64,000 nucleotides of DNA from Bacteroidaceae bacterium (GCA_017410245.1 JAFQRE010000042.1:69827-133826); one strand, 5' to 3'. Shown: positions 14,136 through 64,000, counted from the stretch's first letter. Numbers and translations are program-made. Notes: generated by a model from the letters alone, not told the origin.

Positions 14136-14140
14136 ACGCT

Positions 14141-14551: not shown

Positions 14552-14562
14552 TCTTTTCCGTT

Positions 14563-15054
14563 ATGAGAAATCTTACAATCATCTTCTTGCTCGTGGTTCT
14601 CACTTCGTGCCACTCAAAAAAGAACATTGCAAGTTCGGGTTCGGCTAATGCCAACACAATCGCCACGACGGATATACGCGTGAGTACAAGCAAGTTGGAC
14701 TCGGCTTTCTCCTCTATGGCAATAGAGTTGGACTCTTTTGATATTACAGCCGAACCTGTGCTGATAGCCCCTTGCCCCGATAGTGTCAATACTCGCTCTG
14801 CTGTGATTGCCTATCGTTATCGCATCAAAGCCAATAGTGCCACTGTCAAGGGGGAAAAGAACGCAGTAAGTCGTGCCTTCGCCGACACACTGCAACAGGA
14901 TAGTTTAGCATCTAACTTAGTCCACTCGTCGGCAAGTTCCGAACATCGTGATACGATTTCGGTGTATAAGCCTCCCGATGCGACAATAGTAATTATAATC
15001 GCCATTGTCATTGCGATAATAATCTTCGTTATACTTTGGAAATTTCGTAAATAA
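14563..15054 (+). CDS. lipoprotein with C-terminal TM anchor (unimolecular-spanin-like)
   Basis: N-terminal signal with lipobox VVLTSC. The C-terminal hydrophobic segment is IVIIIAIVIAIIIFVILW followed by KFRK. Last gene of the lysis cassette. Confidence 0.5.
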   Translation: MRNLTIIFLLVVLTSCHSKKNIASSGSANANTIATTDIRVSTSKLDSAFSSMAIELDSFDITAEPVLIAPCPDSVNTRSAVIAYRYRIKANSATVKGEKNAVSRAFADTLQQDSLASNLVHSSASSEHRDTISVYKPPDATIVIIIAIVIAIIIFVILWKFRK

Positions 15055-15084
15055 ATTCCCTCAATATCTCTGAATGTGTGTAAG

Positions 15085-15120
15085 GTGGATTGCTCGTGAG
15101 AGTAGTCCACTTTTTGTTTT
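15085..15120 (+). terminator. rho-independent terminator with GUGA tetraloop
   Basis: GTGGATTGCTC-gtga-GAGTAGTCCAC forms 11 bp (two G-T pairs), then TTTTTGTTTT. Confidence 0.7.
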
Positions 15121-15698
15121 GGTTGGGCTTCTGCTATGGCTTGGCACTAACGAACGGCTGGGCTGTGCCACATACTTTAGGAGTGGCGTTCCCTTTGGGT
15201 TTGTCGTCTGCAACCGCCAAGGCTTATGCCTCTATTCCGTTACGCAGTGAAACCTACACAAGCTCCGGCTTCATTGCTCCTCTGCTAGACGGCATAGGTT
15301 CGCACGATTGCACTACATTCCGTAAATCAACCTTCGCTTCTCTTCGGCTTCATTACTCCTTTGCGTTTATCTCCTCACCACGCTTCGACGGTATTGACAC
15401 AAAACACTTACTCTTGCAGTACGGCTTCGCCTATTGCCTACGCACGCCAAGACAATACGCATTGCCCTTGTTAAGCCCCTAAAGGGAGTAAGGAGTGCTA
15501 TTGTTCTCGCTGAAACCACATCGTGCCTCGTGGTTTCGGCTCGCACAAAAGCGATTTTACCGCACATATTCCGATACGAAATTAAATCGGTTTTCGGTCG
15601 GGCGATTGAGGGCGGTCGGGGGGTCTTTGCAGACAGCAGTTAAAGGCAAGCCCTTAACAATCCCTTTAATTAGCTCGATACGAGCTAATTAACTTTTT
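15121..15698 (+). ncRNA. candidate large structured ncRNA (about 580 nt) between two terminators
   Basis: No credible ORF. Several hairpins are visible by eye, for example GAAACCAC-n9-GTGGTTTC at 15512-15537 and AATCG-n13-CGATT. It is closed by a perfect 12-bp hairpin terminator. No own promoter was found. Confidence 0.35.
15666..15698 (+). terminator. rho-independent terminator (perfect 12-bp stem)
   Basis: TTAATTAGCTCG-ata-CGAGCTAATTAA followed by CTTTTT. Confidence 0.7.
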
Positions 15699-15796
15699 CA
15701 AGCCTTTACAATGCGTGAACTTTTGTAAAAATCGGTGCTTGAAAATGTGTGTAATCTCTCTGTAAATCTGTCTTTTATGTAGCCATATTTTCAGCC

Positions 15797-15804
15797 TAAT
15801 TTTG
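15797..15804 (+). promoter_or_regulatory. -7 box TAATTTTG for the tape measure gene
   Basis: TAnnTTTG match 24 nt upstream of ATG 15828. Confidence 0.45.
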
Positions 15805-15827
15805 ACTAAACTTTTAATCAAAATACT

Positions 15828-19892: not shown

Positions 19893-21667
19893 AAATCATT
19901 ATCAACGGCAAAGATGCTGTATTAAAGAAAGGTACTTCCTTTGAGTTCGTGGCTGAAAATCGCTCTTTCACAGGTTCGGACAGCTATACGCTCTCCATTA
20001 CGTTCCCTTTACGTGGTTGCCCCGAAAATATTGCTATCTTCGGCTACATAAATCGTACCGACATAGACAAATCAAAGGTTGTCTTTGATTGCGAAATCTC
20101 TGACATCAATTTCTATTCTGCCGGTACTATCACGATTGTAGAGATTAACGAAAAGGAAGTGAAAACGCAATTTCTTGAAGGTCGCTCGGAGCAGAACTTC
20201 GACGACACTTTTGATGATATTTACATCAACGAACTCGATTTAGGAAGTTATCCACTTTCGACTCTTCCAAATGAACCGGCGTCGCAATGGCAAGGACTAT
20301 ACTATGGTCAAGAGGCTGTCGCTCTGCCGTGGGTAAATAATTCTTCGGGAAATATTCAAAACGAAGTGGTGTACTCTAATGGTAAATACTCTTATCACGA
20401 GGATTGCCGTGGTTTGTCGTTCCAACCTTACTTAATTGTTCTCGTCAAGCGTATTTGCTCGGCTCTTGGCTATTCTTGCGATGTATCGCAATGGAACAGC
20501 CGTGAGGATTTGCGTTATCTCTTAATCTGCAATACTCTGCCGTATGCGTGGAATATTCCTCAATTTGCTCGTGCTTTGCCTCATTGGAGCGTAACGGAGT
20601 TCTTTGAGAAACTTGAATACTTCATCGGTGGCGAGTTCGACATCGACCACAGGGCAAAGTCAGTCAAGTTCTCTTTTATATCCAATGTGCTTGCTTCAGC
20701 TAAGCCGGTACTTATTGATAAGATTATTGACTCTTATTCTGCCGAAGTGACTACTGACGATGAAAGTAATTATATCGAATCAGCTAACCTTAAATACAAA
20801 GAGTGTGAGCATAATATGTGGAAGTTCTATTCTTGCCCTTGGTTTGTCAAAGATACTCTCGCCAATCGTGTTGAATATGATACACTCGATGCTCTTATCG
20901 CTGCGAATAAAGGTTATGCTCGTGTGCGTAGATATGGGCGTGGAGATAGAATCCACAAGGTGCTATATGCTAAAGATGTGGATATGAACTTTGTGATAAG
21001 ATGTATTCGTAACGAATATGTCGAAACTAATTCTTTGGGATATGATATTTACGACCGCATTTGTGTTCTCCAACCTGTAAATGTTTTCGGTAGTAAATAT
21101 GACAATGACGAGTTAGAAAATACTATCGAACTCGATTTTGTGCCTGCGTGGATTGACGAAACTGAGGAAAGTAAAGGAAACTGTTTGTTCCTTGATATTG
21201 AAAGCTATGATGAAGACGAATCGACTGACGCAACTCGATCCTCAGAGAGCGATAGCGATGAAGTGGTTATATATCAACCTCTGGCTATGCAACAACTCGC
21301 TAACGGAGAAAAGGAAGAAAAATCTGAATACTTCGATAAGATTTACATTGCCTTTTGGGACGGTGCGAACAACAATCCCGGTAAACTGCCGTGTCCTACA
21401 ATCGATTGGGTTACCATTCGTGAGAATTGGACTTATTTTATCACTCATTTCTCTATGCGTTTTTCAAAAGGTGTTATGGCTCAAGCGAAGTATAAAATAA
21501 ATCCTAAACAGAAATATCAGTTTTCGTTTATTGCTGACACTATTCCGAATGTGCGTTCTCTTTTCTATATCAATGGCAAGAAATACCTCTGCGAAAAAAT
21601 AACTGCAACATTCACAGAAAACGGAATGTCGCAGTTACTCAAAGGAACTTTCTACCTTGTGATTTAG
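19889..21667 (+). CDS. phage tail protein downstream of TMP (distal tail / baseplate position, 592 aa)
   Basis: ATGA overlap with the TMP stop. The assignment is positional only. Confidence 0.5.
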   Translation: MKIIINGKDAVLKKGTSFEFVAENRSFTGSDSYTLSITFPLRGCPENIAIFGYINRTDIDKSKVVFDCEISDINFYSAGTITIVEINEKEVKTQFLEGRSEQNFDDTFDDIYINELDLGSYPLSTLPNEPASQWQGLYYGQEAVALPWVNNSSGNIQNEVVYSNGKYSYHEDCRGLSFQPYLIVLVKRICSALGYSCDVSQWNSREDLRYLLICNTLPYAWNIPQFARALPHWSVTEFFEKLEYFIGGEFDIDHRAKSVKFSFISNVLASAKPVLIDKIIDSYSAEVTTDDESNYIESANLKYKECEHNMWKFYSCPWFVKDTLANRVEYDTLDALIAANKGYARVRRYGRGDRIHKVLYAKDVDMNFVIRCIRNEYVETNSLGYDIYDRICVLQPVNVFGSKYDNDELENTIELDFVPAWIDETEESKGNCLFLDIESYDEDESTDATRSSESDSDEVVIYQPLAMQQLANGEKEEKSEYFDKIYIAFWDGANNNPGKLPCPTIDWVTIRENWTYFITHFSMRFSKGVMAQAKYKINPKQKYQFSFIADTIPNVRSLFYINGKKYLCEKITATFTENGMSQLLKGTFYLVI

Positions 21668-22875
21668 GTTTTATCATATAATACATAGTCTAACACCTTA
21701 CGATTGGCTTCATCTACCTTTCGCATATCAAATTCGATATAGATGTCTGTTACTGTGTTACCACCATGACCTAATGCAGCTGCTATGGTATCTTTGGGAA
21801 TATCCAAGTAGGCTGCTAAGGTTGCCCATGAATGTCGTGCCCAATAACTTGTGAGTTCTTTTATAGTTACTCCGTCATCTATATCGTTTAATCGCTGTTT
21901 AATCGCTTTCAATCCATTGCACATATTCATATAAAATGAACGGTAATTTTTGTAAGTATCAAGATAGTTGAGTAAATGCTTTTCTCCACTATACTTCTGA
22001 ATTATTTCGTTCGCTTCGGTCTCTACCTTTATAGAGTATGGCTTATGTGTTTTGGCTCGTATGTATTCAACACGACCATTTTCATAAGTTTGCAAATTGC
22101 AAAGGTCAATTACATTTATTCCAATAAGCATAAAAGTCAATTTGAAGAAGTCTCGGTATTTTACTTGCCAAGGCTCTAATCCTTCGGCATTGAAAATTTT
22201 ACGAATGGCTTCTACCGACAAGTTGCGTTTTCTTGTAGGCTCAGGCTTTATCTTGAATCGACGAAATGGGTAGTTGGTCGTAATCTCATTATCAATTGCA
22301 TCATTGAAGACTGCTCGAATGTTGCGAAGATGAATGTTTCTTGCATTTGCCGACGGTGCTGTCATGGCCAGAAAATCATCAAAGTTCTGCAACCATTCTT
22401 TGTTTATATCCTCAAAAGTCAAACTCTTAAATTTCTTGCCAAGAAAGTTTACCAATCGTTTATATGTCGCCATATAAATCTCTTGTGTTCGTTTGGTTTT
22501 GTGGTTTGCAAAACGAAGAAAGCACTGCTCAAAGGTGTTCTCATTTGCTCTCGCTTGTGCGATTTCAGGATTTAACAAACACACTAATTTATCACGCAAC
22601 TGAACCGCTGTTAAATGAGTGATGTTTTCATTACAACTTAGTCTTAACAAAGCTGCTTCATATTCAGACTTTCTCATTGTTAGAAGCGAATTTACCGCTG
22701 TAATATTGTCATGAGTTCTTACCCGGTTTTTCTTTGAATCCCATTGTTCAGGCGTCAAATGAACATTTAACGGAACATAAGCAGTACTACGATTGTGAGT
22801 AACCGCTAACTTGAGTGGCGAAGGTTTTTCTCCTTTCGATGACCTTGTGTCAAGGTAAAATTTAATTTTTGCCAT
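21664..22875 (-). CDS. tyrosine integrase (Bacteroidota phage/ICE type)
   Basis: The likely start is MAKIKFYLDTRSSKGEKPSPL (the listed ORF starts 21 nt upstream). The C-terminal motifs are YWARHSWAT and LGHGGNTVTDIYI. Confidence 0.85.
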   Translation of the reverse strand: MAKIKFYLDTRSSKGEKPSPLKLAVTHNRSTAYVPLNVHLTPEQWDSKKNRVRTHDNITAVNSLLTMRKSEYEAALLRLSCNENITHLTAVQLRDKLVCLLNPEIAQARANENTFEQCFLRFANHKTKRTQEIYMATYKRLVNFLGKKFKSLTFEDINKEWLQNFDDFLAMTAPSANARNIHLRNIRAVFNDAIDNEITTNYPFRRFKIKPEPTRKRNLSVEAIRKIFNAEGLEPWQVKYRDFFKLTFMLIGINVIDLCNLQTYENGRVEYIRAKTHKPYSIKVETEANEIIQKYSGEKHLLNYLDTYKNYRSFYMNMCNGLKAIKQRLNDIDDGVTIKELTSYWARHSWATLAAYLDIPKDTIAAALGHGGNTVTDIYIEFDMRKVDEANRKVLDYVLYDKT

Positions 22876-23087
22876 AGGTAAAAAGTCGGTCACCATGAAG
22901 TCCTATCAAAACTTGCATGCATTTTAACTACCCTAAAAAAGCTAATTGTCTAAGGTTTAGATTATTGCTCTTTTTTTCTTGCACGCATTTTGCGCACTTT
23001 TTTTCGGCAATTATCTGCAAAAGTCGTCAAAAATCGTCAATTATGACCTTTTTTTTAACCTATTCCGAGTGTGTTTTTGGGAAAAAT

Positions 23088-23448: not shown

Positions 23449-24789
23449 ATGATGAAATTCTACACAAAATTCTTCACAACAGTTGTACTGTTGCTGACAC
23501 TTTCTTTTTCGACAGTAGTATCAGCTCAACAATGGGAGCAGATACAAGAACTTCCGGCTGCACAAAACATCTTTGTGGCAAAGAATGGAAATCTTATATC
23601 TTCCGATTTTCATTTCGACTACATTGGAGGTATCTATTATTCGCAAGATGGCGGATTGAATTGGACTAAGGCCGATGTAGAAGACTATGCTTACAATCGT
23701 ATGATTCAAGCCGGTGATTATATTATTGCTGCCGGTGAGGGTTGCAATTTGGCTCGTTCGGCCGATAATGGTATTACTTGGGAGGTGCTCAACTATGGTT
23801 ATATGTATAGTGAGTATCTTACTGAAGATGCTATTCAATATAATGTGTGCTATGCTATTATATATTACAAGAATAAACTTTTCCTCGCTGACTTTGGTGG
23901 CGGTGGTGTCATCTATAGCGAGGACTTTGGTGAAACTTGGACTATGACCGATCGTGAGTCGCTCAAGTACTATATTGATGGTGTTGCGATGACTCGTGCT
24001 AAGGATGATGGTATGGCTATCGATAGTTTCTATAACATGGCCGAAAACAACAATGAGTTGCTTTTGTTTGGTGTTTACTTTGTTTATCGTCTTAACGAAA
24101 CAGATTATACATGGGAGTTGTTGCGTAACGATAGCAACTTCATGGGTGTTTCTACAACTGTCAATAACAGACTATTCTGTGGTCGTGCTATTATGAACTA
24201 TAATGCCAATACTCCTTTCCTCGAATACACCGAGGACGGTGGTCGCACATGGGGTCATGTGGGTCATGCCGATACTATTTCGTACGACACCAATGTACGT
24301 GCTATGCATAGTGACGAAAAAGGCATGTATGTGGCCTTGCAACAAGGTGGTTTCTACTATACTACCGATATGGGCGAGACTTGGATGAATATTTCTGATG
24401 GTATTCCTTATAATATCAATAACAATGATGGTAGCAAGATGTATTATTCACCTCTCATTGTAGACTCGGACGATGAGTATATCTATACGGCTATTTATGA
24501 TCTTCCCTGGGCTGGAACATCGGTGAGTGGTATATATCGTTACAAAAAATCGGATCTTCCCGTAGCTTCGGTTGATAGGACTCTGAATGATATAGCTGTA
24601 TATATTTCTAATAGTACTATTTATACTGCCGAGGTTGCCGATATAGCTATATATAGTATCAACGGTACTTTGGTAAGTAACACAACTTCTGCTATCGAGG
24701 CCGACCTCAGTTCTTTGGCTCGTGGTGTGTATATTTATCAGGTTACCTGCAACAATGCTACCGTAACCGGTAAGTTTATCAAACGTTGA
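23449..24789 (+). CDS. BNR/Asp-box repeat beta-propeller protein with T9SS C-terminal sorting domain
   Basis: Signal peptide, then five SxDxGxTW-like boxes (SQDGGLNWT, SADNGITWE, SEDFGETWT, TEDGGRTWG, TTDMGETWM). The C-terminus GVYIYQVTCNNATVTGKFIKR is typical of a T9SS CTD. A -7 box TACCTTTG is at 23397. Confidence 0.75.
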   Translation: MMKFYTKFFTTVVLLLTLSFSTVVSAQQWEQIQELPAAQNIFVAKNGNLISSDFHFDYIGGIYYSQDGGLNWTKADVEDYAYNRMIQAGDYIIAAGEGCNLARSADNGITWEVLNYGYMYSEYLTEDAIQYNVCYAIIYYKNKLFLADFGGGGVIYSEDFGETWTMTDRESLKYYIDGVAMTRAKDDGMAIDSFYNMAENNNELLLFGVYFVYRLNETDYTWELLRNDSNFMGVSTTVNNRLFCGRAIMNYNANTPFLEYTEDGGRTWGHVGHADTISYDTNVRAMHSDEKGMYVALQQGGFYYTTDMGETWMNISDGIPYNINNNDGSKMYYSPLIVDSDDEYIYTAIYDLPWAGTSVSGIYRYKKSDLPVASVDRTLNDIAVYISNSTIYTAEVADIAIYSINGTLVSNTTSAIEADLSSLARGVYIYQVTCNNATVTGKFIKR

Positions 24790-24876
24790 TAGTATTTGAT
24801 TGAAAATAAATAAAGGCAGATGTGACAAATAGTGCATGTCTGCCTTCTTTCAGTAATATATAAAACCGATAGTAAA

Positions 24877-26799
24877 ATGAAGTGTCTTAGATTTTTATGT
24901 ACTATGGTCGTATTGTTGGCTACTATCACGGTAATGGCTAACGAGCAAGACTATATGACATATCATAGTTGTAATTTTGATGCCGAGCTTCCCGAAGACT
25001 ATACCATGTATGATGTAGATGCTCAAACATTGCACTATACGATGGTACAAGCCGGACTCAAACAAGGTGTGGCATGGAATAGAAGAAAAGAGATAGGTAC
25101 ACAAAATTATTATATCGCATCGGCCTGTCGTTATAAAGAGGAGGAAGGTGTAGAGTTGAAGGCCTCGGATAAGTGGCTTGTTACACCTGCCATATGGGTG
25201 AGAGGAAAGGAGGCTAAATTGTCTTGGCAAGGTATGTCGGTGACCAATCGTCTTGAGGTTGGTGCCGGATATGAGATACTTGTGTCAACAACCGGTAACA
25301 CACCGGCCGACTTTACATCTGCTGCTATATATACGGTTGCAGAGGAGTCGTTAGATGAATGGACTCAGCATACAGTCAATCTTGACGAGTATCAAAATCA
25401 ACACATTTATATAGCATTCCATAACAATAGTGCTCAAGGCGAAATTTTGGCTATAGACAATGTTGATGTTACCGGTCATAGAGGAGTATGCGATTTTGTA
25501 GTCACCACACCTACACACTTGTTTGGTTCCAATTCGTTGTATGTAACAGCCTCTATTACCTCATACTCCGATGAGCCTATCAATGATATTCGTGTATCAT
25601 ATACCTACAACGACATGCCCATTACTCAGGAATATATCGACATTAATCTGAGTAAGTATGAGACTTTCGATGTTACATTTGAGCGTCCCATTGAGGTGGC
25701 CAATGGCGATACAGTATCATATAGTGTTGGAGCTATTGTATCGGGTTATGAGCAAGACGAGATAGTGTGCTCAACGGTAGCCTTTATGTTTGAGCCTGAG
25801 CGAAGGGTTGTGATTGAGGAGGGTACCGGTATGTGGTGTACTTATTGTCCTAAGGGTATTGTAGCTATGGATATATTGCACGAGAAGTATCCCGACTCCT
25901 TTATTGGTATTGCAATTCACTATGATGATCCGATGGCTCTTGACGAATACTTCGGAGCTCTTGGCCTGGTGGGACTGCCTTCGGGTTGGATAAACCGCAA
26001 GTATTTATCAGATAACCCTATGGTTCTGGTTGAGAATAATGGCGTGAGTGAGTATGTGGTTGATCAAGGTGGATTTGAAACCTATTTTGTCGAAGAGTTG
26101 AATATTGTGGTACCTACCAATGTAGATATTACATCGGTAGCATACAAAGACAATCAAGTTACTGTCAATACTACAGTGCGATCGGCTATCGATCTCGATA
26201 ACTTGCAGTATCAGTTGGCCTTTGTTGTAATTGAAGAGAATGTATGGCAGGTAGGCTATTATCAGAAGAATGGTTTTGCTGGCAAAGATGTTCTTGTCAA
26301 TGGCTGGGAAAATCGACCTTCTACCGTTACAAGCGATTTTGCATTCAGCCATGTTGCACGAGCTATATATGACGACTATCAAGGTGTAGTAGGAAGTGTT
26401 CCAGAACAATTGTTGGCCGGTGAAGAGTATGAGACAAGTTATACGTTCGATCTGCCTTCAACTATACTTAACTACGATAATGTGCATATTGTTGCCATGC
26501 TTATCGACCTTACCGATGGATCTATTGTTAATGCCGATCAATCGGAGTCTATCACAGCTATAGATGCAACCAAAGTAGTTGCTGAGCCGTATTGCGTATT
26601 ATCGGGCAATTGTATTGATGTTATATTGCCCTCAGCTACACCGGCTACGCTTTCGCTGTACAATACGGTAGGCTCGTTGGTTGCCATGCATACTACAGCC
26701 GGATATAATATGAGCATACCTGCTCCTGCGTCGGGTATCTATGTTGTATCGATTGTACAAGATGGTGTGACAACCAATCATAAAATAGTAGTACCGTAA
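24877..26799 (+). CDS. secreted surface protein with T9SS C-terminal sorting domain
   Basis: An internal ATG gives the signal peptide MKCLRFLCTMVVLLATITVMA. It has an EEGTGMWCTYCPKG motif. The C-terminus is SGIYVVSIVQDGVTTNHKIVVP. Confidence 0.7.
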   Translation: MKCLRFLCTMVVLLATITVMANEQDYMTYHSCNFDAELPEDYTMYDVDAQTLHYTMVQAGLKQGVAWNRRKEIGTQNYYIASACRYKEEEGVELKASDKWLVTPAIWVRGKEAKLSWQGMSVTNRLEVGAGYEILVSTTGNTPADFTSAAIYTVAEESLDEWTQHTVNLDEYQNQHIYIAFHNNSAQGEILAIDNVDVTGHRGVCDFVVTTPTHLFGSNSLYVTASITSYSDEPINDIRVSYTYNDMPITQEYIDINLSKYETFDVTFERPIEVANGDTVSYSVGAIVSGYEQDEIVCSTVAFMFEPERRVVIEEGTGMWCTYCPKGIVAMDILHEKYPDSFIGIAIHYDDPMALDEYFGALGLVGLPSGWINRKYLSDNPMVLVENNGVSEYVVDQGGFETYFVEELNIVVPTNVDITSVAYKDNQVTVNTTVRSAIDLDNLQYQLAFVVIEENVWQVGYYQKNGFAGKDVLVNGWENRPSTVTSDFAFSHVARAIYDDYQGVVGSVPEQLLAGEEYETSYTFDLPSTILNYDNVHIVAMLIDLTDGSIVNADQSESITAIDATKVVAEPYCVLSGNCIDVILPSATPATLSLYNTVGSLVAMHTTAGYNMSIPAPASGIYVVSIVQDGVTTNHKIVVP

Positions 26800-56252: not shown

Positions 56253-57371
56253 ATGGAAAAAGCTAAAGTCTATTTTACCAACATGCGCACAACCCCGCAA
56301 AGCAATCTCCTCGACAAGATGGAGCGCCTTGTACGTCGCGCCGGCATAGCCGATATTGACTTCGAAAACAAATTCGCAGCCATCAAGATACACTTTGGAG
56401 AGCCCGGCAATCTGGCCTATTTGCGTCCGCAATATGCAGCCCGTATGGCATCGGTAGTACGATCTTTAGGAGGCCGCCCATTCCTTACCGACTCCAATAC
56501 CCTTTATACCGGCCGTCGTGCCAATGCCGTAGATCACCTGCAGAGCGCTATGGAAAATGGCTATAATCCCATATCGGCCCAGTGTCCGGTCATCATTGCC
56601 GATGGCTTGAAAGGTACCGACTACCGCGAAGTACCCATCGATGGCGAATACTGCAAAACCGCAAAAATAGGTACAGCTATTGTAGATGCCGATATCGTAA
56701 TATCAATGAGTCACTTCAAAGGACACGAGCAAGCCGGATTTGGCGGAGCACTGAAAAACCTCGGTATGGGAGCAGCAAGCCGTGGAGGTAAACTCGAACT
56801 CCACAGCGGCTCACAACCTCGCATCAAAGAACACAAATGCGTAGGTTGCGGTATGTGCGTGCGCAATTGCTCACACGGTGCACTCTCGCTCGTCGATCGC
56901 AAAGCCGTTATCGACTACACACGCTGTGTAGGATGCGGACAGTGTATAGCCATGTGTCAGTACAACGCAGCCGTACCCGGAGCCGACGACACCACCGAAC
57001 GCCTCAACTACAAAATAGCCGAATACACCGTAGCAGTACTCAAGGACAAGCCCCATTTCCATGTCAGTTTCATAGTCGATGTATCGCCCGAGTGCGACTG
57101 CTGGAACCACAACGACGCAGCCATTGTGCCCAACATAGGCATACTCGCTTCGTTCGATCCCGTAGCCCTGGACCAAGCCTGTGCCGACCTCGTTATAGCA
57201 GCACCCGCATTGAAGTCCGACAACATCTTGCATTGCAATCACGACCACGGTACGCTCGAAGGAGAAGACAAATTCCACCTCCTACACCCCGATACCCACT
57301 GGCGTGCCGCCCTCGAGCATGGCGAAAAAATCGGCCTCGGTACCCGAGAGTACGAGTTGATAACAGTCTAG
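56253..57371 (+). CDS. DUF362-type protein with 2x[4Fe-4S] ferredoxin insert
   Basis: CVGCGMCVRNC and CVGCGQCIAMC clusters. Followed by the GC-rich terminator GCGGGGTGCTTCG...CGAAGCACCCCGC at 57396-57432. Confidence 0.75.
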   Translation: MEKAKVYFTNMRTTPQSNLLDKMERLVRRAGIADIDFENKFAAIKIHFGEPGNLAYLRPQYAARMASVVRSLGGRPFLTDSNTLYTGRRANAVDHLQSAMENGYNPISAQCPVIIADGLKGTDYREVPIDGEYCKTAKIGTAIVDADIVISMSHFKGHEQAGFGGALKNLGMGAASRGGKLELHSGSQPRIKEHKCVGCGMCVRNCSHGALSLVDRKAVIDYTRCVGCGQCIAMCQYNAAVPGADDTTERLNYKIAEYTVAVLKDKPHFHVSFIVDVSPECDCWNHNDAAIVPNIGILASFDPVALDQACADLVIAAPALKSDNILHCNHDHGTLEGEDKFHLLHPDTHWRAALEHGEKIGLGTREYELITV

Positions 57372-57725
57372 TAAAAACATACCAATTGGAGTTGGCGCGG
57401 GGTGCTTCGGTTACGAAGCACCCCGCTTTTGTTTCTAAGTGTAATGCCGAGATTTAAGTCGAATGAGAGTCCTGAATATATAACCAAGTCTATTGTGAAT
57501 CACTACAACCTCCCTTAGCAATTGAACATATTACCTTTCATCATTACCACCGCATATATCCCCCTACACGATGATGTATGTGGTGGGTCTATATTATATA
57601 TGTGTGTAGCTGTCTTTGATAAAGGGGCGAAATATTCACGTAAGCTTGTCGGTGTTATCAAACAATGTTGAGACAATTTGCAATCAGATATGTAGGAAAA
57701 GGATTTTTTAACCAATCTATACATG

Positions 57726-57740
57726 GTTACTTGAAAGAAC
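57726..57740. repeat. left arm of a perfect 15-bp inverted repeat, GTTACTTGAAAGAAC
   Basis: Read directly. The reverse complement is at 58007-58021. Confidence 0.8.
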
Positions 57741-57752
57741 CATGCACAATTG

Positions 57753-57760
57753 CAAAGATA
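57753..57760 (-). promoter_or_regulatory. -7 box TATCTTTG on the minus strand inside the invertible segment
   Basis: CAAAGATA on the + strand is TAnnTTTG on the minus strand, 13 nt from the left repeat. It currently points away from the upxY-like operon. Confidence 0.35.
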
Positions 57761-58006
57761 CTAAAATAAACCATAATAAGAACGAATTTCAACACTTTTT
57801 TTGTCCATATTTTATAAAAATATCCCATAGAAATATATAGGCACAGCAATGATAGATATTTATAAATGTTACAGTCAATTATAGTAAAACCTGTATTATT
57901 ATTATTCCTTTTAACTTAATTATATTTTTCAAAATAACCATGTTTTTAAATTTTTGATTTGATGTATTATAAACCACTATCATACAAGATTTTATAAAAA
58001 TAAGTA

Positions 58007-58021
58007 GTTCTTTCAAGTAAC
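58007..58021. repeat. right arm of the 15-bp inverted repeat (GTTCTTTCAAGTAAC)
   Basis: Exact reverse complement of 57726-57740. It ends 26 nt upstream of the upxY-like ATG. Confidence 0.8.
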
Positions 58022-58047: not shown

Positions 58048-58638
58048 ATGAACGACATAATAGGTAGTACCGAGATATTCAATAAGGAAGGTTCGCTTGT
58101 TACTGTGACAAACGGCCGCGAAGCGTATCCGAGGCGTTGGATTGCAGTCCTCGTTCAGGTAAATTGTGAGAAGAGAATAGCTACCCTTTTAGGCAAAGCA
58201 GGATACGAAACATACATACCTACTCAGCTTGAAGTGCACCAATGGAGCGATCGCAAAAAGAAGGTGCAACGCATCATAATGCCCATGGTGGTTTTTGTAC
58301 GTGCTGCCAAAAATGAAGAAAAATGGTTGCTAAATCAATCATACATACACAAACTCATTGCTCTCCCCGGTAGCAAAGAGGCTATGAACAAGTGTGCAAC
58401 CCCCATACCCGATGCTCAGATAGAGCGTTTGAAGTTCTTGCTCGAAAACGCAGAAACGGAGGTGACCATTGTGAGCAGTCTGAAAGTAGGTGATATGGTG
58501 CGTATTGCTGCAGGTCCGTTGACCGGACTCGAAGGTGTAGTTAGTGTAGCAGAAGATAAGAATACAATTGTGGGTCTACAAATTGATGGGCTTGGCTATG
58601 CCTGTGTTCGTATTCCCATTGACTATTTAACCCGATAA
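58048..58638 (+). CDS. UpxY-family (NusG-like) transcription antiterminator
   Basis: NGN-type N-domain (RRWIAVLVQVNCEKRIATLLGKAGYETYIPTQ...MPMVVFVR) and C-terminal KOW (VGDMVRIAAGPLTGLEGVV). Confidence 0.8.
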   Translation: MNDIIGSTEIFNKEGSLVTVTNGREAYPRRWIAVLVQVNCEKRIATLLGKAGYETYIPTQLEVHQWSDRKKKVQRIIMPMVVFVRAAKNEEKWLLNQSYIHKLIALPGSKEAMNKCATPIPDAQIERLKFLLENAETEVTIVSSLKVGDMVRIAAGPLTGLEGVVSVAEDKNTIVGLQIDGLGYACVRIPIDYLTR

Positions 58639-58647
58639 GAGATAAAT

Positions 58648-59316
58648 ATGAAATTTGCGCTTGACAATGTCTATTGTAATATGACCGACAAGGAACTTGT
58701 CGATCTGTCAATTAAAGGAAATGACGAGGCCATACTATATCTCCTGTATGTGAGATATGAGAAGGACTTGAAGTTTTATGCAATGAGATACTATGATTCG
58801 TTGGAGTATCTTGATGAATTGACCCATGAGCTCTTTATACGACTCAAGGGTACGAATGCCGATTGCAAACCATTGGATAATTTCCAATGGAGGAGTTCGT
58901 TTAGAACTTGGCTCTGCAGAGTCGCATCAAATCTTTTCTTAGAAAAAAGACCCCAAATGATAGGTCTGAATAGTGATAGGAACTCTAATGGTACAAACGA
59001 TGATGATTTATCGAAGCTGCCCGAACCCCAACCTGAGCCGGTTAATGAAAAACTGGTGATGATATTGGAAGCCCTCAATCGAATGGAAGACGATGAGTAT
59101 CGCTTCATTCTCATCAAAGAGCTTGAAGGATACAATCATAAAGAGATTGCCGAGATGCTGGTTGCCAGAAGAGAAAAAAAGAATATAGTAAAATACTATA
59201 ATGGCAATATAGTCGTTCCTGATGCTTCCTCTGTTGATAGGGATAAGGCAAGGGCTATTAATAAACTCAAAGTTATTGTAGAACAGATTAAACAAGAGTG
59301 GTATGGAAATGAGTGA
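58648..59316 (+). CDS. sigma-70 family (ECF-like) RNA polymerase sigma factor
   Basis: Region-2-like THELFIRL...FRTWLCRVASNLFL and region-4-like FILIKELEGYNHKEIAEML with an insert. Confidence 0.7.
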   Translation: MKFALDNVYCNMTDKELVDLSIKGNDEAILYLLYVRYEKDLKFYAMRYYDSLEYLDELTHELFIRLKGTNADCKPLDNFQWRSSFRTWLCRVASNLFLEKRPQMIGLNSDRNSNGTNDDDLSKLPEPQPEPVNEKLVMILEALNRMEDDEYRFILIKELEGYNHKEIAEMLVARREKKNIVKYYNGNIVVPDASSVDRDKARAINKLKVIVEQIKQEWYGNE

Positions 59317-59644
59317 TGAACTGATTGCTTGTTATGTAGAAGGAAAAGTAACTCCAGAGGAGCGAAATTTTGTCAGAAAGTATCTATGTGAGCACCCCGA
59401 GGAATATGAATGTATTCTTAGCTTGATAGATAATGATACTGAAGATTATTTAGGCCAACAACTGCCAATATCGGCCGATTGCATATCGATGAACGAAACG
59501 TCATTCTCCGATATTGCATATTCGGCAGCGGCATTTGCCCCGGAACAAAACAATTTGTCTATTCATAAACCTAAATCAAATTTACCCGATGTAAACGGAA
59601 TATATGATAGGTTGCGTAGATTGAGTGATGAATTAGATAAATGA
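59303..59644 (+). CDS. anti-sigma-factor-like small protein, no TM segment
   Basis: Overlaps the sigma stop by 14 nt. The N-terminus LIACYVEGKVTPEERNFVRKYLCEHPEEYECILSL resembles the zf-HC2 anti-sigma N-domain pattern. Confidence 0.4.
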   Translation: MEMSDELIACYVEGKVTPEERNFVRKYLCEHPEEYECILSLIDNDTEDYLGQQLPISADCISMNETSFSDIAYSAAAFAPEQNNLSIHKPKSNLPDVNGIYDRLRRLSDELDK

Positions 59645-59678
59645 TACTTTTTACAAATTTTTTATTGAGTGAAAAATT

Positions 59679-60014
59679 ATGAAAAAGATTGCGATTTTTG
59701 TAGCTATAGTATTGTCTGTAGGATTGTGTATTTCATGCCGAAATTCATCAAATACCAAACTTTTTGTAGATAAGGCAGTTAAAGAATATCGAGCAGCTAG
59801 TAAAAGTGATGCTGTACGATATTTGAAAACACAAAACAGAATTAACCAAGCAGAAAGATTGATTGATAATTATTACTCATCATCTTCATGCAGTACATGT
59901 AATGGATATGGTGTTGTTTATCAAGTTGATGCATATGGAAACGTAATTACCGACTATTATGGTAATACAATCTACTACTTTTGCCCGACATGTGGAGGAT
60001 CTGGTAATTATTAA
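59679..60014 (+). CDS. exported lipoprotein with two DnaJ-type CxxCxGxG zinc-finger motifs
   Basis: Signal peptide MKKIAIFVAIVLSVGLCISC. C-terminal CSTCNGYG and CPTCGGSG. Confidence 0.6.
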   Translation: MKKIAIFVAIVLSVGLCISCRNSSNTKLFVDKAVKEYRAASKSDAVRYLKTQNRINQAERLIDNYYSSSSCSTCNGYGVVYQVDAYGNVITDYYGNTIYYFCPTCGGSGNY

Positions 60015-60094
60015 AAAATTATTGAAGGTCATGTAAGCATAGAAGAGTGAAACTTCGTCAGACAATATCTATACAAGTCATCGGAGAAATATGA

Positions 60095-60904
60095 ATGAGT
60101 AGTATGCCCTTTACAGAAGGATATAAAATACTGAAGAGTAAGGCCCAACAGGCTGTTATAACAGTGAAAGCCTCTAAATTCTTTCCTAAGATGAAAAGAA
60201 CTACACTTCCGTATGCCTATCCTTGCAAAAACTATTTAGACCCAATACTTTCTAACGAAATAGTTCACTCGGCATTGCAACTATTTGTAGATACCAATTG
60301 TAAAAAACAGATTCAAAATATAAAATCAACCGGACAGTTGGTTACTAAAGATAACTATCCGCAATTTTACAATCTGCTTCAAAGTTGCTACAAATCGTTG
60401 AATGTAGAGGAGGTACCGGAAGTTTATATAACCGGTAAACTGAAAGGAATAAATGCCTTAAGTGTAGGAACAGACTCAGCTCCGCTCATTCTCGTTAGCA
60501 GTAAATCGGTAGTAGGCCTGCCCGAGGGAGAGCTGAAGTTTATGATAGGGCACGAATTGGGGCATATCCTTCAGAAAAATCTGATGTGTCATACGATCAA
60601 AGGACTTTTGGATAACTTAAACAGAAAATCAGATGTTTTCGGGCCTATAGTATCCGATATAATCGAAGTCCCGCTCAATCAGTGGTATAGATGTGCCGAA
60701 TATACAGCCGACCGTGCCGGACTGATATGTTGTGGAAGTATATCGCACGTGAAATCGTTATTCACACGATTGAGCAATAGTGCAATGCGACCCAACAACC
60801 AGATAGAAAAATACTTCGAGTTGAGCAATATACACCCATTGTATAATAGTCGAATAGAAATGCTCGAGCAATTCGTTTTGTCGCAACAAAAAGATATTGT
60901 ATGA
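60095..60904 (+). CDS. M48-family zinc metallopeptidase, no obvious TM segments
   Basis: HEXXH (IGHELGHI) and a downstream glutamate ligand in EYTADRAG. An alternative start is at 60104. Confidence 0.75.
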   Translation: MSSMPFTEGYKILKSKAQQAVITVKASKFFPKMKRTTLPYAYPCKNYLDPILSNEIVHSALQLFVDTNCKKQIQNIKSTGQLVTKDNYPQFYNLLQSCYKSLNVEEVPEVYITGKLKGINALSVGTDSAPLILVSSKSVVGLPEGELKFMIGHELGHILQKNLMCHTIKGLLDNLNRKSDVFGPIVSDIIEVPLNQWYRCAEYTADRAGLICCGSISHVKSLFTRLSNSAMRPNNQIEKYFELSNIHPLYNSRIEMLEQFVLSQQKDIV

Positions 60905-61731
60905 TAAAAAACAAGAAAATATTAAAAGGGTTGAATAACTCGCAATACGAGCACCCATTCGACCAGAAAGCACTACTGGCTCTGCAAAGCACCCCCGGCG
61001 TGGACTTGGTGGGAAACTTCATCGTCAAGCATGCCATCGAGAAAATATATACCGTACAATATACCGGAAGTAACTTGAAGGTAACAAGTCAAAACTATCC
61101 CAAGATATACGAATACCTTCAGTATGCTTGTCAAATCTTAGATTTACCCCGAGTGCCCGAATTGTATATCGAGTGGGGATATAACATAAACGCCTTTACC
61201 GTAGGATCTGAAAATCCTATCATCGTATTGAGTTCGGGTCTAATCGACTTGTGCGACGACGATGAGATAATGTTTGTCATCGGTCATGAGTGTGGCCACA
61301 TCAAGAGCAACCACATGCTCTACCACATGATGGCACAAGCCCTCAACATCTGCATCGATAATATACCCGGTGGAAACTTAGTAGCAGCACCATTGCAGTA
61401 TGCCCTATATTATTGGAATAGAATGTCGGAGTTTACTGCTGACCGTGCCGGATTGCTCAGTTGCCAAAATATGACAGCAGCCATTGGCGCATTTATGAAG
61501 ATGGCCGGTATGCCCATCAAGGAATTCAACAAAATGAATTACCAGACATTCATTCAGCAAGCCATAGACTTCAAGCAACTCGATTACGACGCCATGAGTA
61601 AAGTCATCAAGTTCATATCCATAGCCGATGCTTCGCACCCATGGACCGTAATGCGCGCTGCCGAACTCCTCAAATGGGTCGGCGCCGGTGAGTATGATAG
61701 AATCATCAATACATACCGCGCCTTGAAATAA
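60901..61731 (+). CDS. M48-family zinc metallopeptidase, paralog of the previous gene
   Basis: IGHECGHI and EFTADRAG. ATGA overlap with the upstream gene. Shares PE(V/L)YI and INA(L/F)xVG blocks with its neighbour. Confidence 0.75.
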   Translation: MIKNKKILKGLNNSQYEHPFDQKALLALQSTPGVDLVGNFIVKHAIEKIYTVQYTGSNLKVTSQNYPKIYEYLQYACQILDLPRVPELYIEWGYNINAFTVGSENPIIVLSSGLIDLCDDDEIMFVIGHECGHIKSNHMLYHMMAQALNICIDNIPGGNLVAAPLQYALYYWNRMSEFTADRAGLLSCQNMTAAIGAFMKMAGMPIKEFNKMNYQTFIQQAIDFKQLDYDAMSKVIKFISIADASHPWTVMRAAELLKWVGAGEYDRIINTYRALK

Positions 61732-61842
61732 TTGGCTGGAGGAGGGGTGTATACAAACTAATTAGATGACATGACTATTTTGTATGGATAATTATAGAAA
61801 TTGAAGTTGTAATATATAAGTAACAATTTAAAATAATGCATT

Positions 61843-64000
61843 ATGCCTTTACAGCAACAAATTGAGACAATTATTACAAAGCGCCGTATGAATCAAGGTG
61901 AATTTGTAAGCTATTATGAGAAGACTTCGGCCATTTATGATTTTGTTAATGGAGTAAAGTCCTTTAAGTCAAATCCAGGTTGGCTTACAATGATTAATGA
62001 AAATGAGAAACTTAGGCTTGAGTGGGAAACACTAATAGCAGATGTAAATGAACTTGAACTTTTATTGAAAGATTTAAGTTATGGAGATACAGGTTGTTTG
62101 ATTGAATGTTTGAAAAGAGTAAAACGAGAGTATTTGAACATTGGGTGTATTGGACCTTGGCGTCAAGGTAAAAGTACAGTCATATCTAAACTAACAAATC
62201 TCAGCGATTATATCATACCCCGCTCAAAATATCTTACATGTACTGGTACAACTATAAATGTTTTTAATGGAAACCAAGTTGTTTGGGAAAATAATCAATA
62301 TGTTGAAAAAGACGGCAATAAGGCTGTACTCTATTTCCATTCATTTAATAGCATTTGCAAAACAATAAATGAATATTTAGTACAATTGGGTTTTTCACCA
62401 ATGCCATATGCTTTAACAATTGAGAGCTTTGTGCAGAATTGTTCGAAATGTTATAAAGAAAATAGCTATAAAGCTGGAAATGACACTGAATTGAAGAAGA
62501 TGCTGGATAAATATCTCGTTCATGCAAGTGAATATGCACCTTTGTTAAAGCAGAAAGATGGGCTATCAGAGGAAATTTTGAATCTTTCAAGTATTGAATC
62601 TCAACAAAAACTACGTCCATATGTATCATACTACGAGAAAACAGATGCAGAATATGAGCTTGAAGGTATTACCACTCCAGTCCAAAAGTTTATAGTTTTA
62701 GCAGTAAAAAAGGTTGATATATTTACTCATTTTCTTGTTAATGGTGAAAATGGTCCAGAAGAGGTTGGTAGGATACAATTTGTTGACACCCCTGGTATAG
62801 GTGAAAGCAAACTTGAGGTCGCCGAGACTTTAGCAAATGCGTTAAGGTCCGATTTAGATATTGCTATTTGCCTTCGCAAGGTATCAAATCAAAGTGGAAT
62901 AATCCCGACTGATAGTTCCGATTTTCATAAGGTGCTGAAGCAGAATACCTTTGGAAGAAATCCTGAAAACTGGGTGTTCTATTTATACAATAAAGAAGGT
63001 GATGTGGCTCATGATATTCTTATGACAACATTTTCTGAAGTTAATGGAGATCTCATGAATACACCTGTTCAGGGCAGAAATGTTAATCAAATTATTCCTG
63101 GCATTAAGCTTAAATACACACCACAAGAGCCTAAAGGGAATCACATTGATTTTATTGATGTACAAAGAGAAGAAGAGAAGTTACAAAAATATTTCCTATC
63201 TATTCTTACGGAAATGGCTACAACTATTTCTGTGTCAGATAATGCTTTTTACAATGAAACTCGTGATTTGTACAACAAGGTTTCTAATCTTTACCAAAAT
63301 ATCATTGGTGGAAGTATGAAAACCATATCGCAGTGCTTGCCTACATTTGACGATAGAGAGAAAATCCTTAAGACTATCAAGGCCGTAAACAATATGTGGA
63401 TGGCTAATGTTAAGTGCCCTGAAACTCTCAGCGAAAATATAAATGCAGCATTAGTTGATTTTTATAAGGAGCCATATGGTGTGGTGTTGGCTGAAGTCTT
63501 GGGGCTGTCTCCTGAGAAAATTAAGAAAATGAGTGATGAAATAAAAAAAGTTGAAAATAGTGCTGAATTAAAAATAGGAGAACGTATTGCAAAGAGAAAG
63601 CAGATAGCTTATGATGCTATCTTCCCATTGATACAAAACAAAATAACATCTTTCACAGTAGATGTCTTGGCTGTACATAGTGTATTTGGCGAAGTTTCCG
63701 AAAAATTATCGAACCGGATGAGTGAAAGAGCTGTCCGAATAATTGAAGCTACTGATGCGATAAAGAAACTTGATGACCTAAAAGAGAATTTTTGGCTAGG
63801 GTTTATGAATGAAGGGTTATTAGGTTTTGGTAAAACAGATGTAAATAGCTGGATTAATTATTTCTTAAGTCTTCTTGAAGAAGGAGGTGCTGATTTTGCA
63901 GCTCTACACAATGCTATTGTCAACTTCAAAAATTGTCAATTTGATATTAGGGGTGATATATCAAAGTTTGTCAAGGCTACTATAGAGGAAGTGAGAAAAA
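61843..64000 (+). CDS. dynamin-like large GTPase, 3' end outside the window (at least 719 aa)
   Basis: My own translation from ATG 61843 is stop-free to nt 64000. It is not in the ORF track because no stop is reached. P-loop IGCIGPWRQGKSTVISKL and dynamin-type G3 IQFVDTPGIGE, followed by a long helical region. Confidence 0.7.
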   Translation, partial: MPLQQQIETIITKRRMNQGEFVSYYEKTSAIYDFVNGVKSFKSNPGWLTMINENEKLRLEWETLIADVNELELLLKDLSYGDTGCLIECLKRVKREYLNIGCIGPWRQGKSTVISKLTNLSDYIIPRSKYLTCTGTTINVFNGNQVVWENNQYVEKDGNKAVLYFHSFNSICKTINEYLVQLGFSPMPYALTIESFVQNCSKCYKENSYKAGNDTELKKMLDKYLVHASEYAPLLKQKDGLSEEILNLSSIESQQKLRPYVSYYEKTDAEYELEGITTPVQKFIVLAVKKVDIFTHFLVNGENGPEEVGRIQFVDTPGIGESKLEVAETLANALRSDLDIAICLRKVSNQSGIIPTDSSDFHKVLKQNTFGRNPENWVFYLYNKEGDVAHDILMTTFSEVNGDLMNTPVQGRNVNQIIPGIKLKYTPQEPKGNHIDFIDVQREEEKLQKYFLSILTEMATTISVSDNAFYNETRDLYNKVSNLYQNIIGGSMKTISQCLPTFDDREKILKTIKAVNNMWMANVKCPETLSENINAALVDFYKEPYGVVLAEVLGLSPEKIKKMSDEIKKVENSAELKIGERIAKRKQIAYDAIFPLIQNKITSFTVDVLAVHSVFGEVSEKLSNRMSERAVRIIEATDAIKKLDDLKENFWLGFMNEGLLGFGKTDVNSWINYFLSLLEEGGADFAALHNAIVNFKNCQFDIRGDISKFVKATIEEVRK

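Follow-up and report, generated by a model that had tools for sequence, protein, structure and literature searches.

The closest described counterparts of the locus reported here are the capsular polysaccharide (CPS) loci of Bacteroides. In these loci a TAnnTTTG promoter lies between inverted repeats, a locus-specific UpxY gene stands first in a very long co-directional array, and the content further downstream is replaced within a species. We find the same arrangement at the end of a 64,000-nt stretch of DNA from a Bacteroidaceae bacterium (GCA_017410245.1, JAFQRE010000042.1:69827-133826; this whole stretch is called the window below), and in homologous loci a tyrosine recombinase lies beside the repeat, again as in the CPS loci. 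We read the seven genes at 58048-64000 of the window as the 5′ regulatory head, together with the opening gene of the cargo, of a predicted phase-variable island which was acquired horizontally and whose likeliest role would be defence against phages or in other conflicts, an assignment that we hold with about even confidence. Unlike the CPS loci the island encodes cytoplasmic NTPases, kinases, phosphatases, von Willebrand factor A (vWA) proteins, peptidases and a cassette for a ribosomally synthesized and post-translationally modified peptide (RiPP), and there are no sugar or export genes. It differs further in its predicted leader of only ~45-50 nt and in that we infer the inversion here from sequence geometry.

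A constant core with variable effectors is also the plan of the nucleoside triphosphate (NTP)-dependent conflict systems (Kaur, Burroughs, Iyer and Aravind 2020, PMC7159879), of which the GTPase-centric ones with tubulin and Hsp70 components come closest. As in these systems, the cargo of the island comprises GTPase, tubulin, Hsp70, vWA, kinase and peptidase proteins which vary between close relatives, and regulated, costly intracellular effectors are predicted. In contrast, the core of the island is transcriptional (UpxY, a sigma factor and the small protein g3) and is joined by M48 peptidases, and its GTPase is of the dynamin type; dynamin, sigma factors and NusG paralogues are not mentioned in PMC7159879. 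The DO-GTPase/GAP1 pair by which those systems are defined gave no Pfam match in any island protein, and a trace of DO-GTPase2 in the cargo of three homologous loci (L012, L028, L030) stayed below threshold (22.7 bits vs 27). A further comparison is offered by the TerY-P triads (Anantharaman 2012; Gao 2020), which PMC11090510, citing Gao 2020, describes as reported stand-alone anti-phage systems. In a TerY-P triad the vWA, PP2C and Ser/Thr kinase genes are adjacent and the same gene order is found in the island cargo. The TerY-P kinase ends in an OB fold or a zinc ribbon, whereas the island kinase carries a second vWA domain instead, and the PADLOC models TerY and STK_OB match the cargo of homologous loci strongly but not the triad of the window strain. 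The regulatory parts of the island are all of known kinds and its cargo resembles predicted conflict systems. In the literature searched we found neither the head nor the cargo platform described, nor a UpxY that serves a locus other than a polysaccharide one. The initial annotation of the window did not recognize the gene combination as any described system.

The full extent of the array became apparent from contigs of other assemblies. By exact-protein look-up of the second M48 peptidase, M48b, we found contig L001, whose sequence matches that of the window over 11,000 nt with 100% identity. L001 is itself 100% identical to L004 (13,725 nt) and to L134 (3,300 nt), both being parts of one 32.7-kb scaffold that starts exactly at the right inverted repeat described below, and L001, L004 and L134 jointly cover the full array of this sequence type. 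It consists of 30 co-directional genes on 23,809 nt, is 94% coding and has no intergenic gap larger than 223 nt, which bears out the expectation of a long operon continuing past the window. Capsule or conjugative genes downstream had been named beforehand as a result that would refute the annotation; none are present among the 30 genes. On the opposite strand 3′ of the array follow lrgBA, recQ and ribosomal protein genes, so that the island sits between a DUF362 gene and lrgBA. Its GC content is 37.4% compared with 45.3% in the right flank. The contrast in composition noted initially (33% vs 45%) is real, but its size was overestimated, since we measured 37.7% for 58048-64000 and 43.7% for the region from 5 to 57 kb.

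On the left side the DUF362 gene ends in a strong intrinsic terminator on the plus strand (57397..57426) with a 13-bp stem containing 10 GC pairs, followed by TTTTGTTT. This terminator is the left edge of the island and insulates it from read-through, and homology to related species ends shortly before it, at 57367-57376. In the related species L038 and L040 the site is empty, the DUF362 gene being followed by lrgBA-recQ-L9 within ~1.2 kb. Even where their DUF362 protein is identical, strains of this species differ at the site and have either the island, a deletion variant with only its tail, or unrelated sequence. In the deletion variant (L162, L165) the junction lies ~27 nt after the DUF362 stop codon and the stem of the DUF362 terminator is fused to the C-terminal part of p175; head, cargo, RiPP cassette and an AAA+ gene are lost, and p53, p218 and the kinase-AAA gene are kept and may be transcribed by read-through from DUF362. 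In L160, L166, L168 and L169 the DUF362 gene is followed by a different terminator, a 368-aa protein without a PADLOC match and a 132-aa open reading frame (ORF), all unrelated to the island. The interval between DUF362 and lrgB is a hot spot for variable content, because strains of one species carry unrelated sequence there.

Lower GC content, the empty site in L038 and L040 and presence or absence among strains of the same species all speak for the horizontal acquisition that had been proposed initially. Rfam and tRNA scans of the region were empty and there is no tRNA gene, Rfam element or integrase at the island borders. In the plasmid collection we found only distant M48 homologues (Actinobacteria, Thermus, Bernardetia). 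The host is an uncultured animal-gut member of the Bacteroidales whose nearest named neighbours are Barnesiella-like metagenome-assembled genomes (MAGs) with ~77% nucleotide identity. We are highly confident of the overall anatomy, that is, of an acquired island with a constant head, a cargo slot and a conserved tail.

The seven window genes are all on the plus strand, with successive junctions, from upxY through g7, of 9, −14, 34, 80, −4 and 111 nt; g7 runs beyond the window end. Both their coordinates and the two overlaps initially given (59303/59316, 14 nt, and 60901/60904, 4 nt) are exact. The first gene (58048..58638) encodes a NusG-like antiterminator of 196 aa, and its UpxY label is secured by the curated model NF033644 (119.4 bits vs a cut-off of 100). 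The NusG NGN domain PF02357 is likewise above its cut-off (44 bits vs 22.2), with KOW just under it (21 bits, E=2.9e-4, vs 22.3). In capsule loci UpxZ occupies the second position, whereas here this place is taken by a sigma-70 factor of the extracytoplasmic function (ECF) type (58648..59316, 222 aa; TIGR02937 46.2 bits vs 42.9). Its region 2 is recognized by Sigma70_r2 (30 bits vs 24) and its region 4_2 scores under the cut-off (16.1 bits vs 25.7). The sigma gene overlaps by 14 nt with g3 (59303..59644), which codes for a cytoplasmic protein of 113 aa, a putative soluble anti-sigma factor or regulatory substrate. The accessory gene g4 (59679..60014) encodes an exported or lipoprotein-like protein of 111 aa with a hydrophobic N-terminal signal, which is lipobox-like with Cys17/Cys20, and two CxxCxGxG motifs (CSTCNGYG and CPTCGGSG). 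This agrees with its description as an exported CxxCxGxG protein; the DnaJ zinc-finger profile DnaJ_CXXCXGXG (PF00684) remains under the cut-off (19.5 bits vs 32.7, E=1.2e-3). Two zinc peptidases follow whose genes overlap by 4 nt, M48a (60095..60904, 269 aa, HELGH, 38.1 bits for Peptidase_M48, PF01435) and M48b (60901..61731, 276 aa, HECGH, 78.6 bits), both well above the cut-off of 20.3 bits and both without transmembrane segments, as the label of soluble M48 peptidases requires. M48b is the final gene of the conserved head. The boundary between head and cargo, from which contigs of the same species diverge, lies at 61745..61755, and the first cargo gene, the dynamin-like GTPase gene g7, starts at 61843 and encodes 836 aa in full (P0127), 719 aa of them within the window (61843..64000).

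We compared the head with the loci of 29 species-representative genomes which have a homologue of M48b (52-87% identity). The sigma factor, g3, M48a and M48b are found in the same order in 16 of the 29 loci, and in 11 of these 16 the UpxY gene is present as well. Among the carriers are the strains Bacteroides salyersiae DSM 18765 and Parabacteroides goldsteinii DSM 19448 as well as a B. thetaiotaomicron MAG, and in nearly all loci a long co-directional array follows. The head, composed of the promoter flanked by inverted repeats, UpxY, the ECF sigma factor, the small, translationally coupled g3 and two soluble M48 peptidases, is conserved across Bacteroidales families, and islands of this type are widespread in gut Bacteroidales. 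A chance neighbourhood, the other outcome named initially as refuting, is not what we see. As a conserved unit of seven genes the annotation holds only in part: UpxY, sigma factor, g3, M48a and M48b are syntenic, whereas g4 is accessory and g7 belongs to the strain-variable cargo. By tblastn g4 is absent between g3 and M48a in loci of other species, and in L023, L024 and L028 it is located elsewhere. As a separate observation, two contigs (L003 2262-3059 and L005 1120-1917) have an additional gene for a 265-aa protein with a 4Fe-4S ferredoxin domain between g4 and M48a; the insertion corresponds to window ~60094-60098 and is preceded by a short g3-like fragment.

Upstream of upxY we identified a candidate invertible promoter. 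A perfect 15-nt inverted repeat, GTTACTTGAAAGAAC on the left (57726..57740) and GTTCTTTCAAGTAAC on the right (58007..58021), flanks a segment of 266 nt (57741..58006), and the right repeat ends 27 nt before the upxY start codon. When two mismatches are allowed, the repeat pattern has 3 matches in the window where 0.18 are expected by chance. A pattern scan for TAnnTTTG revealed a single −7 box of the Bacteroides type in the segment, TATCTTTG (57753..57760), on the minus strand and 12 nt from the left repeat. Since this sole box points away from the operon, the window shows the predicted OFF state. Flipping the segment in silico places the box 13 nt upstream of the right repeat and ~60 nt upstream of the upxY ATG, and the predicted leader in the ON state would be about 45-50 nt long. 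The junctions specific for the ON orientation are predicted to read TTGCAATTGTGCATG|GTTCTTTCAAGTAAC|AGTGCACC and GTTACTTGAAAGAAC|TACTTATTTTTATAAAATC. Bacteroides invertons have repeats around a segment of ~150-350 nt with TAnnTTTG near one of them, and the window locus fits this layout.

Similar geometries occur in homologous loci of Alistipes, Rikenellaceae, Limimorpha and Lentimicrobiaceae. There we found repeats of the GTTC-N7-GAAC type 27-28 nt before upxY, or 72-103 nt before the first gene in loci that begin with the sigma gene, and a −7 box 11-15 nt from a repeat. L011/L143 and L022 show the ON geometry, with a proximal box on the plus strand; L016/L148 and L145 show the OFF geometry, in which the box is distal and on the minus strand. 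The two geometries come from different species. In L010, L011, L015, L016, L018 and L022 a tyrosine recombinase (Arm-DNA-bind_5, Phage_int_SAM_5, Phage_integrase) directly abuts the repeat. Moreover three contigs from three different samples (L003, L004, L007) start at the first base of the right repeat, which is suggestive of a divergence of the two orientations in the assembly graph; the comparison with homologous loci is the stronger evidence. The Alistipes locus L010 has three copies of the repeat at 7222-7569, two on the left (7222-7237 and 7310-7326) and one on the right, a layout that recalls the arrangement with multiple inverted repeats reported for IVp-I of B. fragilis. The IVp-II cluster of B. 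fragilis (PMC4747536) was considered as the same locus and rejected, as it is a different locus.

Phase variation at the upxY promoter, which the initial annotation had thought plausible, is on this evidence probable, given the repeat-flanked promoter and the recombinases that adjoin the repeat in homologous loci. Several observations count against it. We found no contig of this species in the ON orientation: the spanning contigs L001, L002, L123-125, L161, L163 and L164 are all OFF, as were those from look-ups anchored on UpxY and DUF362, and two exact-pattern scans of the Joint Genome Institute (JGI) metagenomes for the ON orientation or other copies gave no match. The contig breaks are no more than suggestive because another contig, L167, ends 40 nt inside the segment. 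In the window no recombinase adjoins the repeat, the neighbour being DUF362, and the integrase at 21664-22896, which we considered as invertase, adjoins a prophage-like region and is more likely a prophage integrase. Finally, about half of the homologous loci are without a detectable perfect repeat or without a UpxY gene.

Beyond M48b the island is variable. Contigs L002, L003 and L005 are 98.7-99% identical to L001 up to its positions 10844-10855 (window 61744-61755), that is 13-24 nt after the stop codon of M48b; from there on they are unrelated until p54/M48c, where similarity returns. Between strains whose flanks are 99% identical the cargo is exchanged as a whole. In the window strain it comprises the dynamin-like GTPase (836 aa), a DUF4407 protein (700 aa, 3 transmembrane segments), a DA1-like peptidase, a vWA protein, a PP2C phosphatase and a Ser/Thr kinase-vWA protein. 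Other strains of the species have instead a different GTPase with a collagen-DUF4407 protein, or a 695-aa protein, Tubulin_2 (1034-1049 aa) and Peptidase_C1 (1047-1268 aa). In other species we found five or six tandem Hsp70 paralogues of 513-599 aa (L009, L011, L017, 10.8-20 kb, and L119) and the kinase/vWA/PP2C triad together with transglutaminase, OmpA-like, zinc-ribbon and DUF4407 proteins, and further downstream in related arrays SIR2, Prok-JAB and SocA_Panacea domains. The Hsp70 arrays are followed by conserved proteins of 403 and 202 aa with no assigned family.

The triad of the window strain lies outside the window on L001, where VWA235 (with a DxSxS metal ion-dependent adhesion site), PP2C384 and Pkinase-VWA565 are adjacent in that order. 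The kinase-vWA protein has no relative among the GTDB representatives and in PADLOC matches only PD-T4-6, weakly; the vWA and PP2C proteins have no PADLOC match at E<=0.01. In the whole island 27 of the 30 proteins are without signal or transmembrane segment, hydrophobic segments being confined to g4, DUF4407 and p148.

The first cargo protein, g7, is a dynamin-superfamily GTPase according to its modelled structure. At the sequence level Dynamin_N stays under its cut-off (21.5 bits vs 27) and a search against PDB sequences gave no match; the assignment in the initial annotation is nevertheless borne out by the fold. An AlphaFold2 (AF2) model built on an alignment of 38 sequences has a pLDDT score (predicted local distance difference test) of 86.7, and the top 14 Foldseek matches at E<=1e-3 are all members of the dynamin superfamily. 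Among them are SynDLP (E=2.5e-9), Campylobacter DLP1/2, the bacterial dynamin-like protein BDLP, IniA, Fzo1, Drp1, MxA and LeoA (6.9e-4), with a probability of 1.0 and with TM-scores which are low (0.13-0.27), as expected of flexible multi-domain proteins. Invariant in the 38 homologues are G1 (G104-x4-GKS111), T134 (G2), DTPG315-318 (G3) and N383 (G4-like). In contrast to BDLP, SynDLP, DLP1/2, IniA and LeoA there is an insertion of ~200 residues between G1 and G3 in g7. The gene is paired with that of the DUF4407 membrane protein in L001, L003 and L036. A relation to systems of the Eleos/LeoA type, also suggested initially, did not hold up. The PADLOC model LeoA reaches E=0.024 on the window fragment and does not match the full-length protein, and whereas LeoA of Eleos has the partners LeoBC, here there is a single dynamin-like gene without them. 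The sole match to LeoB in the island is weak (E=1.3e-4, 19 bits) and concerns the AAA+ protein of the tail; for LeoC there is none in the cargo.

The conserved tail begins with p54, the third M48 peptidase (M48c), a peptide of 68 aa with its radical-SAM/SPASM maturase, a GNAT protein and five small proteins and continues with a SpoVK/EccA-like AAA+ protein, p175, p53, p218 (a fifth HExxH protein), a Ser/Thr kinase-CDC48-like AAA+ protein and three small proteins. M48c, the 68-aa precursor, the radical-SAM/SPASM protein and the GNAT protein form a RiPP-like cassette on L134 (2547-5325), ~13-16 kb beyond the end of the window. In the precursor we recognize a conserved leader, AILNNNVI...AMG (...AILNNNVIKEESRKEAMIAMG), and a Cys-rich core, LSSCQVACMSYKCCTGHG.... 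Its maturase resembles CcpM (186 bits) and CFB GG-type peptide maturases (155 bits), both under the equivalog cut-offs. The block of M48c, peptide, radical-SAM and GNAT genes recurs in at least 7 loci (L022, L023, L033, L118, L119, L127, L131). An exporter or C39 transporter is not found among the 30 genes. In PADLOC the kinase-AAA protein of the tail matches mad6, IetA and PD-T4-6 with 93-106 bits. This protein (P0172) belongs to a family with over 5,500 matches in the database at E<=1e-30, whose listed members are of near-constant length (590-635 aa), and which is abundant in Bacteroidales and of which we found no study in the literature.

The protein g3 could be the link between the sigma factor and the peptidases of the head. 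Its family comprises ~150 clusters at 50% identity, nearly all of 105-130 aa; it has members in 19 species representatives but none in IMG/VR contigs. Besides a conserved N-terminal helix region there is a strongly conserved motif at residues 66-80 with the consensus S-F-S-D-I-A-Y-S-A-A-A-F-A-P (SFSDIAYSAAAFAP), in which two alanines and the phenylalanine are invariant in 15 aligned homologues. This motif may be a protease recognition site. Its surroundings are otherwise variable and probably disordered, and it shows a chance similarity to ASAFAP, the motif at which the plastid-targeting signals of diatoms are cleaved (PDB hit 6l4t).

Homology of g3 to anti-sigma factors was not detected: there is no Pfam or NCBIfam match, a profile search against PDB sequences gave nothing relevant, and hhalign with RsiW returned a probability of 2%. 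Among longer homologues of g3 one has zf-HC2, at E=0.048 only. The putative anti-sigma role rests on the 14-nt overlap with the sigma gene and on the strict co-occurrence of both genes in 16 loci. Of the private sigma factor with an anti-sigma-like partner lacking a transmembrane segment, as initially proposed, the ECF sigma factor and the absence of such a segment are confirmed, but anti-sigma homology is not. Envelope-sensing anti-sigma factors have a transmembrane segment, whereas g3 has none.

Both peptidases of the head contain, after HELGH (M48a) or HECGH (M48b), an E-[YF]-T-A-D-R motif. We considered whether they are membrane proteases of the HtpX/Ste24 kind and rejected this, as they have no hydrophobic segment and score 25-38 bits with the HtpX equivalogs, far under the cut-offs of 245-422 bits. 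The AF2 model of M48b (pLDDT 88.6; predicted template modelling score, pTM, 0.90) matches ZMPSTE24/Ste24p, a soluble Geobacter peptidase, HtpX, BlaR1 and BepA in Foldseek; a sequence search against the PDB found nothing. Distant soluble relatives of M48b are encoded on actinobacterial and Thermus replicons. One of them, on a plasmid of Tsukamurella tyrosinosolvens (L157, NZ_LR134461.1; 37% identity), shares its operon with genes for an Hsp70-family protein and a hypothetical protein of 706 aa, and this operon adjoins a divergent grpE gene. The arrangement is a hint that M48 peptidases and Hsp70 are linked outside Bacteroidales as well.

These parts suggest a model of how the island might work. 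A tyrosine recombinase, unlinked in the window species, would flip the 266-nt segment between ON and OFF. In the ON orientation the promoter would fire ~45-50 nt upstream of upxY and UpxY would be made first; brought in where transcription pauses within the short leader, it would render RNA polymerase resistant to termination and thereby allow one transcript over 24 kb, a mechanism which we take over from UpxY as described in PMC11685472. The ECF sigma factor held by g3 could form a second, signal-dependent layer, in which one or both soluble M48 peptidases would cleave g3 at the small-residue motif containing SAAAFAP. We propose this cleavage because of the analogy with BlaR1-type sensor proteases and with regulated proteolysis of anti-sigma factors. 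The cargo would then supply intracellular conflict effectors gated by NTPases and phosphorylation, of the anti-phage or abortive-infection type. In the window strain the dynamin may act on its DUF4407 membrane partner, gated by a phosphorylation switch of vWA, PP2C and kinase and by the DA1-like peptidase. Being costly, the cargo would be expressed in only a fraction of the cells, and the tail would contribute a modified Cys-rich peptide and AAA+/kinase proteins. That such islands constitute a distinct class, bet-hedging intracellular immune islands gated by an invertase which re-use the capsule-type switch, with swappable modules, a RiPP end and a sigma partner cleaved by M48 peptidases, is a tentative proposal which we regard as possible but doubtful.

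What speaks for a role in conflict or defence is circumstantial, though it forms a coherent picture. Capsule loci are under phage and immune selection, and they share the regulatory logic and the hypervariability within species with the island, whose proteins in contrast are cytoplasmic in 27 of 30 cases. In a PADLOC census for which 85 representatives of the cargo were taken from all homologous loci, there were matches to TerY (2.8e-26), STK_OB (1.4e-38), LeoA (2.5e-16) and ZorB (4e-29) and in addition IetA, PD-T4-6, mad6, mad8, TRIP13 and MkoA. Some findings weigh against a defence role, however. The census includes loci anchored by the M48b homologue alone and does not single out the matching members, and the head and cargo proteins of the window strain themselves have no significant PADLOC match beyond generic kinase matches. 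The island has no match in the phage or IMG/VR collections, nor is it within a recognised defence island. The suggestion of a defence module is therefore backed by the cargo of homologous loci but not by head and cargo of the window strain, and it stays a prediction.

Four other explanations have to be weighed. The initial annotation had offered envelope stress beside defence, and the island might indeed encode a phase-variable programme of envelope stress or membrane remodelling, for example vesiculation, under the ECF sigma factor. Envelope stress is the classical field of ECF sigma factors and of M48/HtpX peptidases. In addition the fold of g7 best matches the membrane-remodelling BDLPs, DUF4407 has 3 transmembrane segments and g4 is exported. 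Vesicle production in B. fragilis is under the control of DNA inversion (PMC4747536). On the other hand GTPase, DUF4407 and lipoprotein are not conserved with the head but are swapped for tubulin with C1 peptidase, kinase triads or arrays of Hsp70; the M48 peptidases, in turn, are soluble and score far under the HtpX equivalog cut-offs, and g3 is without a transmembrane segment. An envelope-stress module is disfavoured because almost all island proteins are cytoplasmic, 27 of 30 having neither signal nor transmembrane segment, and we regard it as unlikely. Nor do we think it likely, to a similar degree, that the island is a locus for RiPP production and regulation with the tail as its core, the M48 proteins as leader peptidases and sigma factor, g3 and kinases as regulators or immunity proteins. 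The precursor with its conserved leader and Cys-rich core, the matches of the maturase to CcpM and CFB GG-type models, albeit under the equivalog cut-offs, and the recurrence of the cassette in the seven loci listed above would fit. Such a locus would, however, leave the large strain-variable NTPase/kinase cargo unexplained and has neither exporter nor C39 transporter; moreover the head is also found where no tail is seen within 10 kb, and peptidases of the M48b type adjoin vWA/kinase or Hsp70 genes without a radical-SAM gene.

A mosaic of unrelated small systems, accumulated at a recombination hot spot with a head that regulates only a few genes of its own and with incidental co-direction, is likewise unlikely in our view. 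It would account for the polymorphism of the site within the species (the full island, the tail-only variants L162 and L165, and the others, L160, L166, L168 and L169), the gaps of 111-223 nt could house internal promoters, and parts of the island occur separately elsewhere, as in loci with M48b only or in the widespread kinase-AAA family. But all 30 genes are on one strand with a dedicated antiterminator first, nearly every head is followed by a long co-directional array, the cargo is exchanged between fixed boundaries, and distant species share the order of head, variable cargo and M48c/radical-SAM tail. From UpxY and an invertible promoter, which are hallmarks of Bacteroides capsule loci (PMC11685472, PMC13114119), one might suspect that a conventional CPS locus or a conjugative element starts here. 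UpxZ, however, is absent, and there is no glycosyltransferase, flippase, polymerase, Wza/Wzc, tra or mob gene in the 30 genes or in the homologous arrays examined. The downstream gene content excludes such an origin, for which we see practically no chance.

If the reading as a phase-variable conflict island is right, phase variation in Bacteroides would reach beyond surface structures (capsules, S-layers, SusC/D) and restriction specificity to intracellular machines, and a UpxY antiterminator would be dedicated to a non-polysaccharide locus. It would also explain the escape of such modules from the present defence-finding tools. A regulatory platform which swaps dynamin-, tubulin- and Hsp70-based modules would point to strong diversifying selection, most plausibly by abundant gut phages. 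The platform further provides an experimental handle on DUF4407, the g3 family, soluble M48 peptidases and bacterial DA1-like peptidases, as homologous heads are present in two culturable type strains, B. salyersiae DSM 18765 and P. goldsteinii DSM 19448.

Elsewhere in the window we noted a prophage-like region at 7336-22896 with a 1354-aa tape-measure protein (15828-19892, PhageMin_Tail). At its end lies, on the minus strand, the Bacteroides-type integrase already mentioned (21664-22896), which is 25-28% identical to the recombinases flanking the repeats of homologous islands. It is followed by a stretch of 37-39% GC encoding a BNR-repeat protein with a C-terminal sorting domain of the type IX secretion system (T9SS; 23449-24789) and an Omp28-like protein (24832-26799). 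At the very beginning of the window there is an AT-rich block (57-4461, 30-33% GC) with an AbiEii-like AAA_21 protein (57-962) and HsdS, the specificity subunit of a type I restriction system (2281-3495, on the minus strand), adjoining a tyrosine integrase (3532-4461), a layout typical of phase-variable hsdS shufflons.

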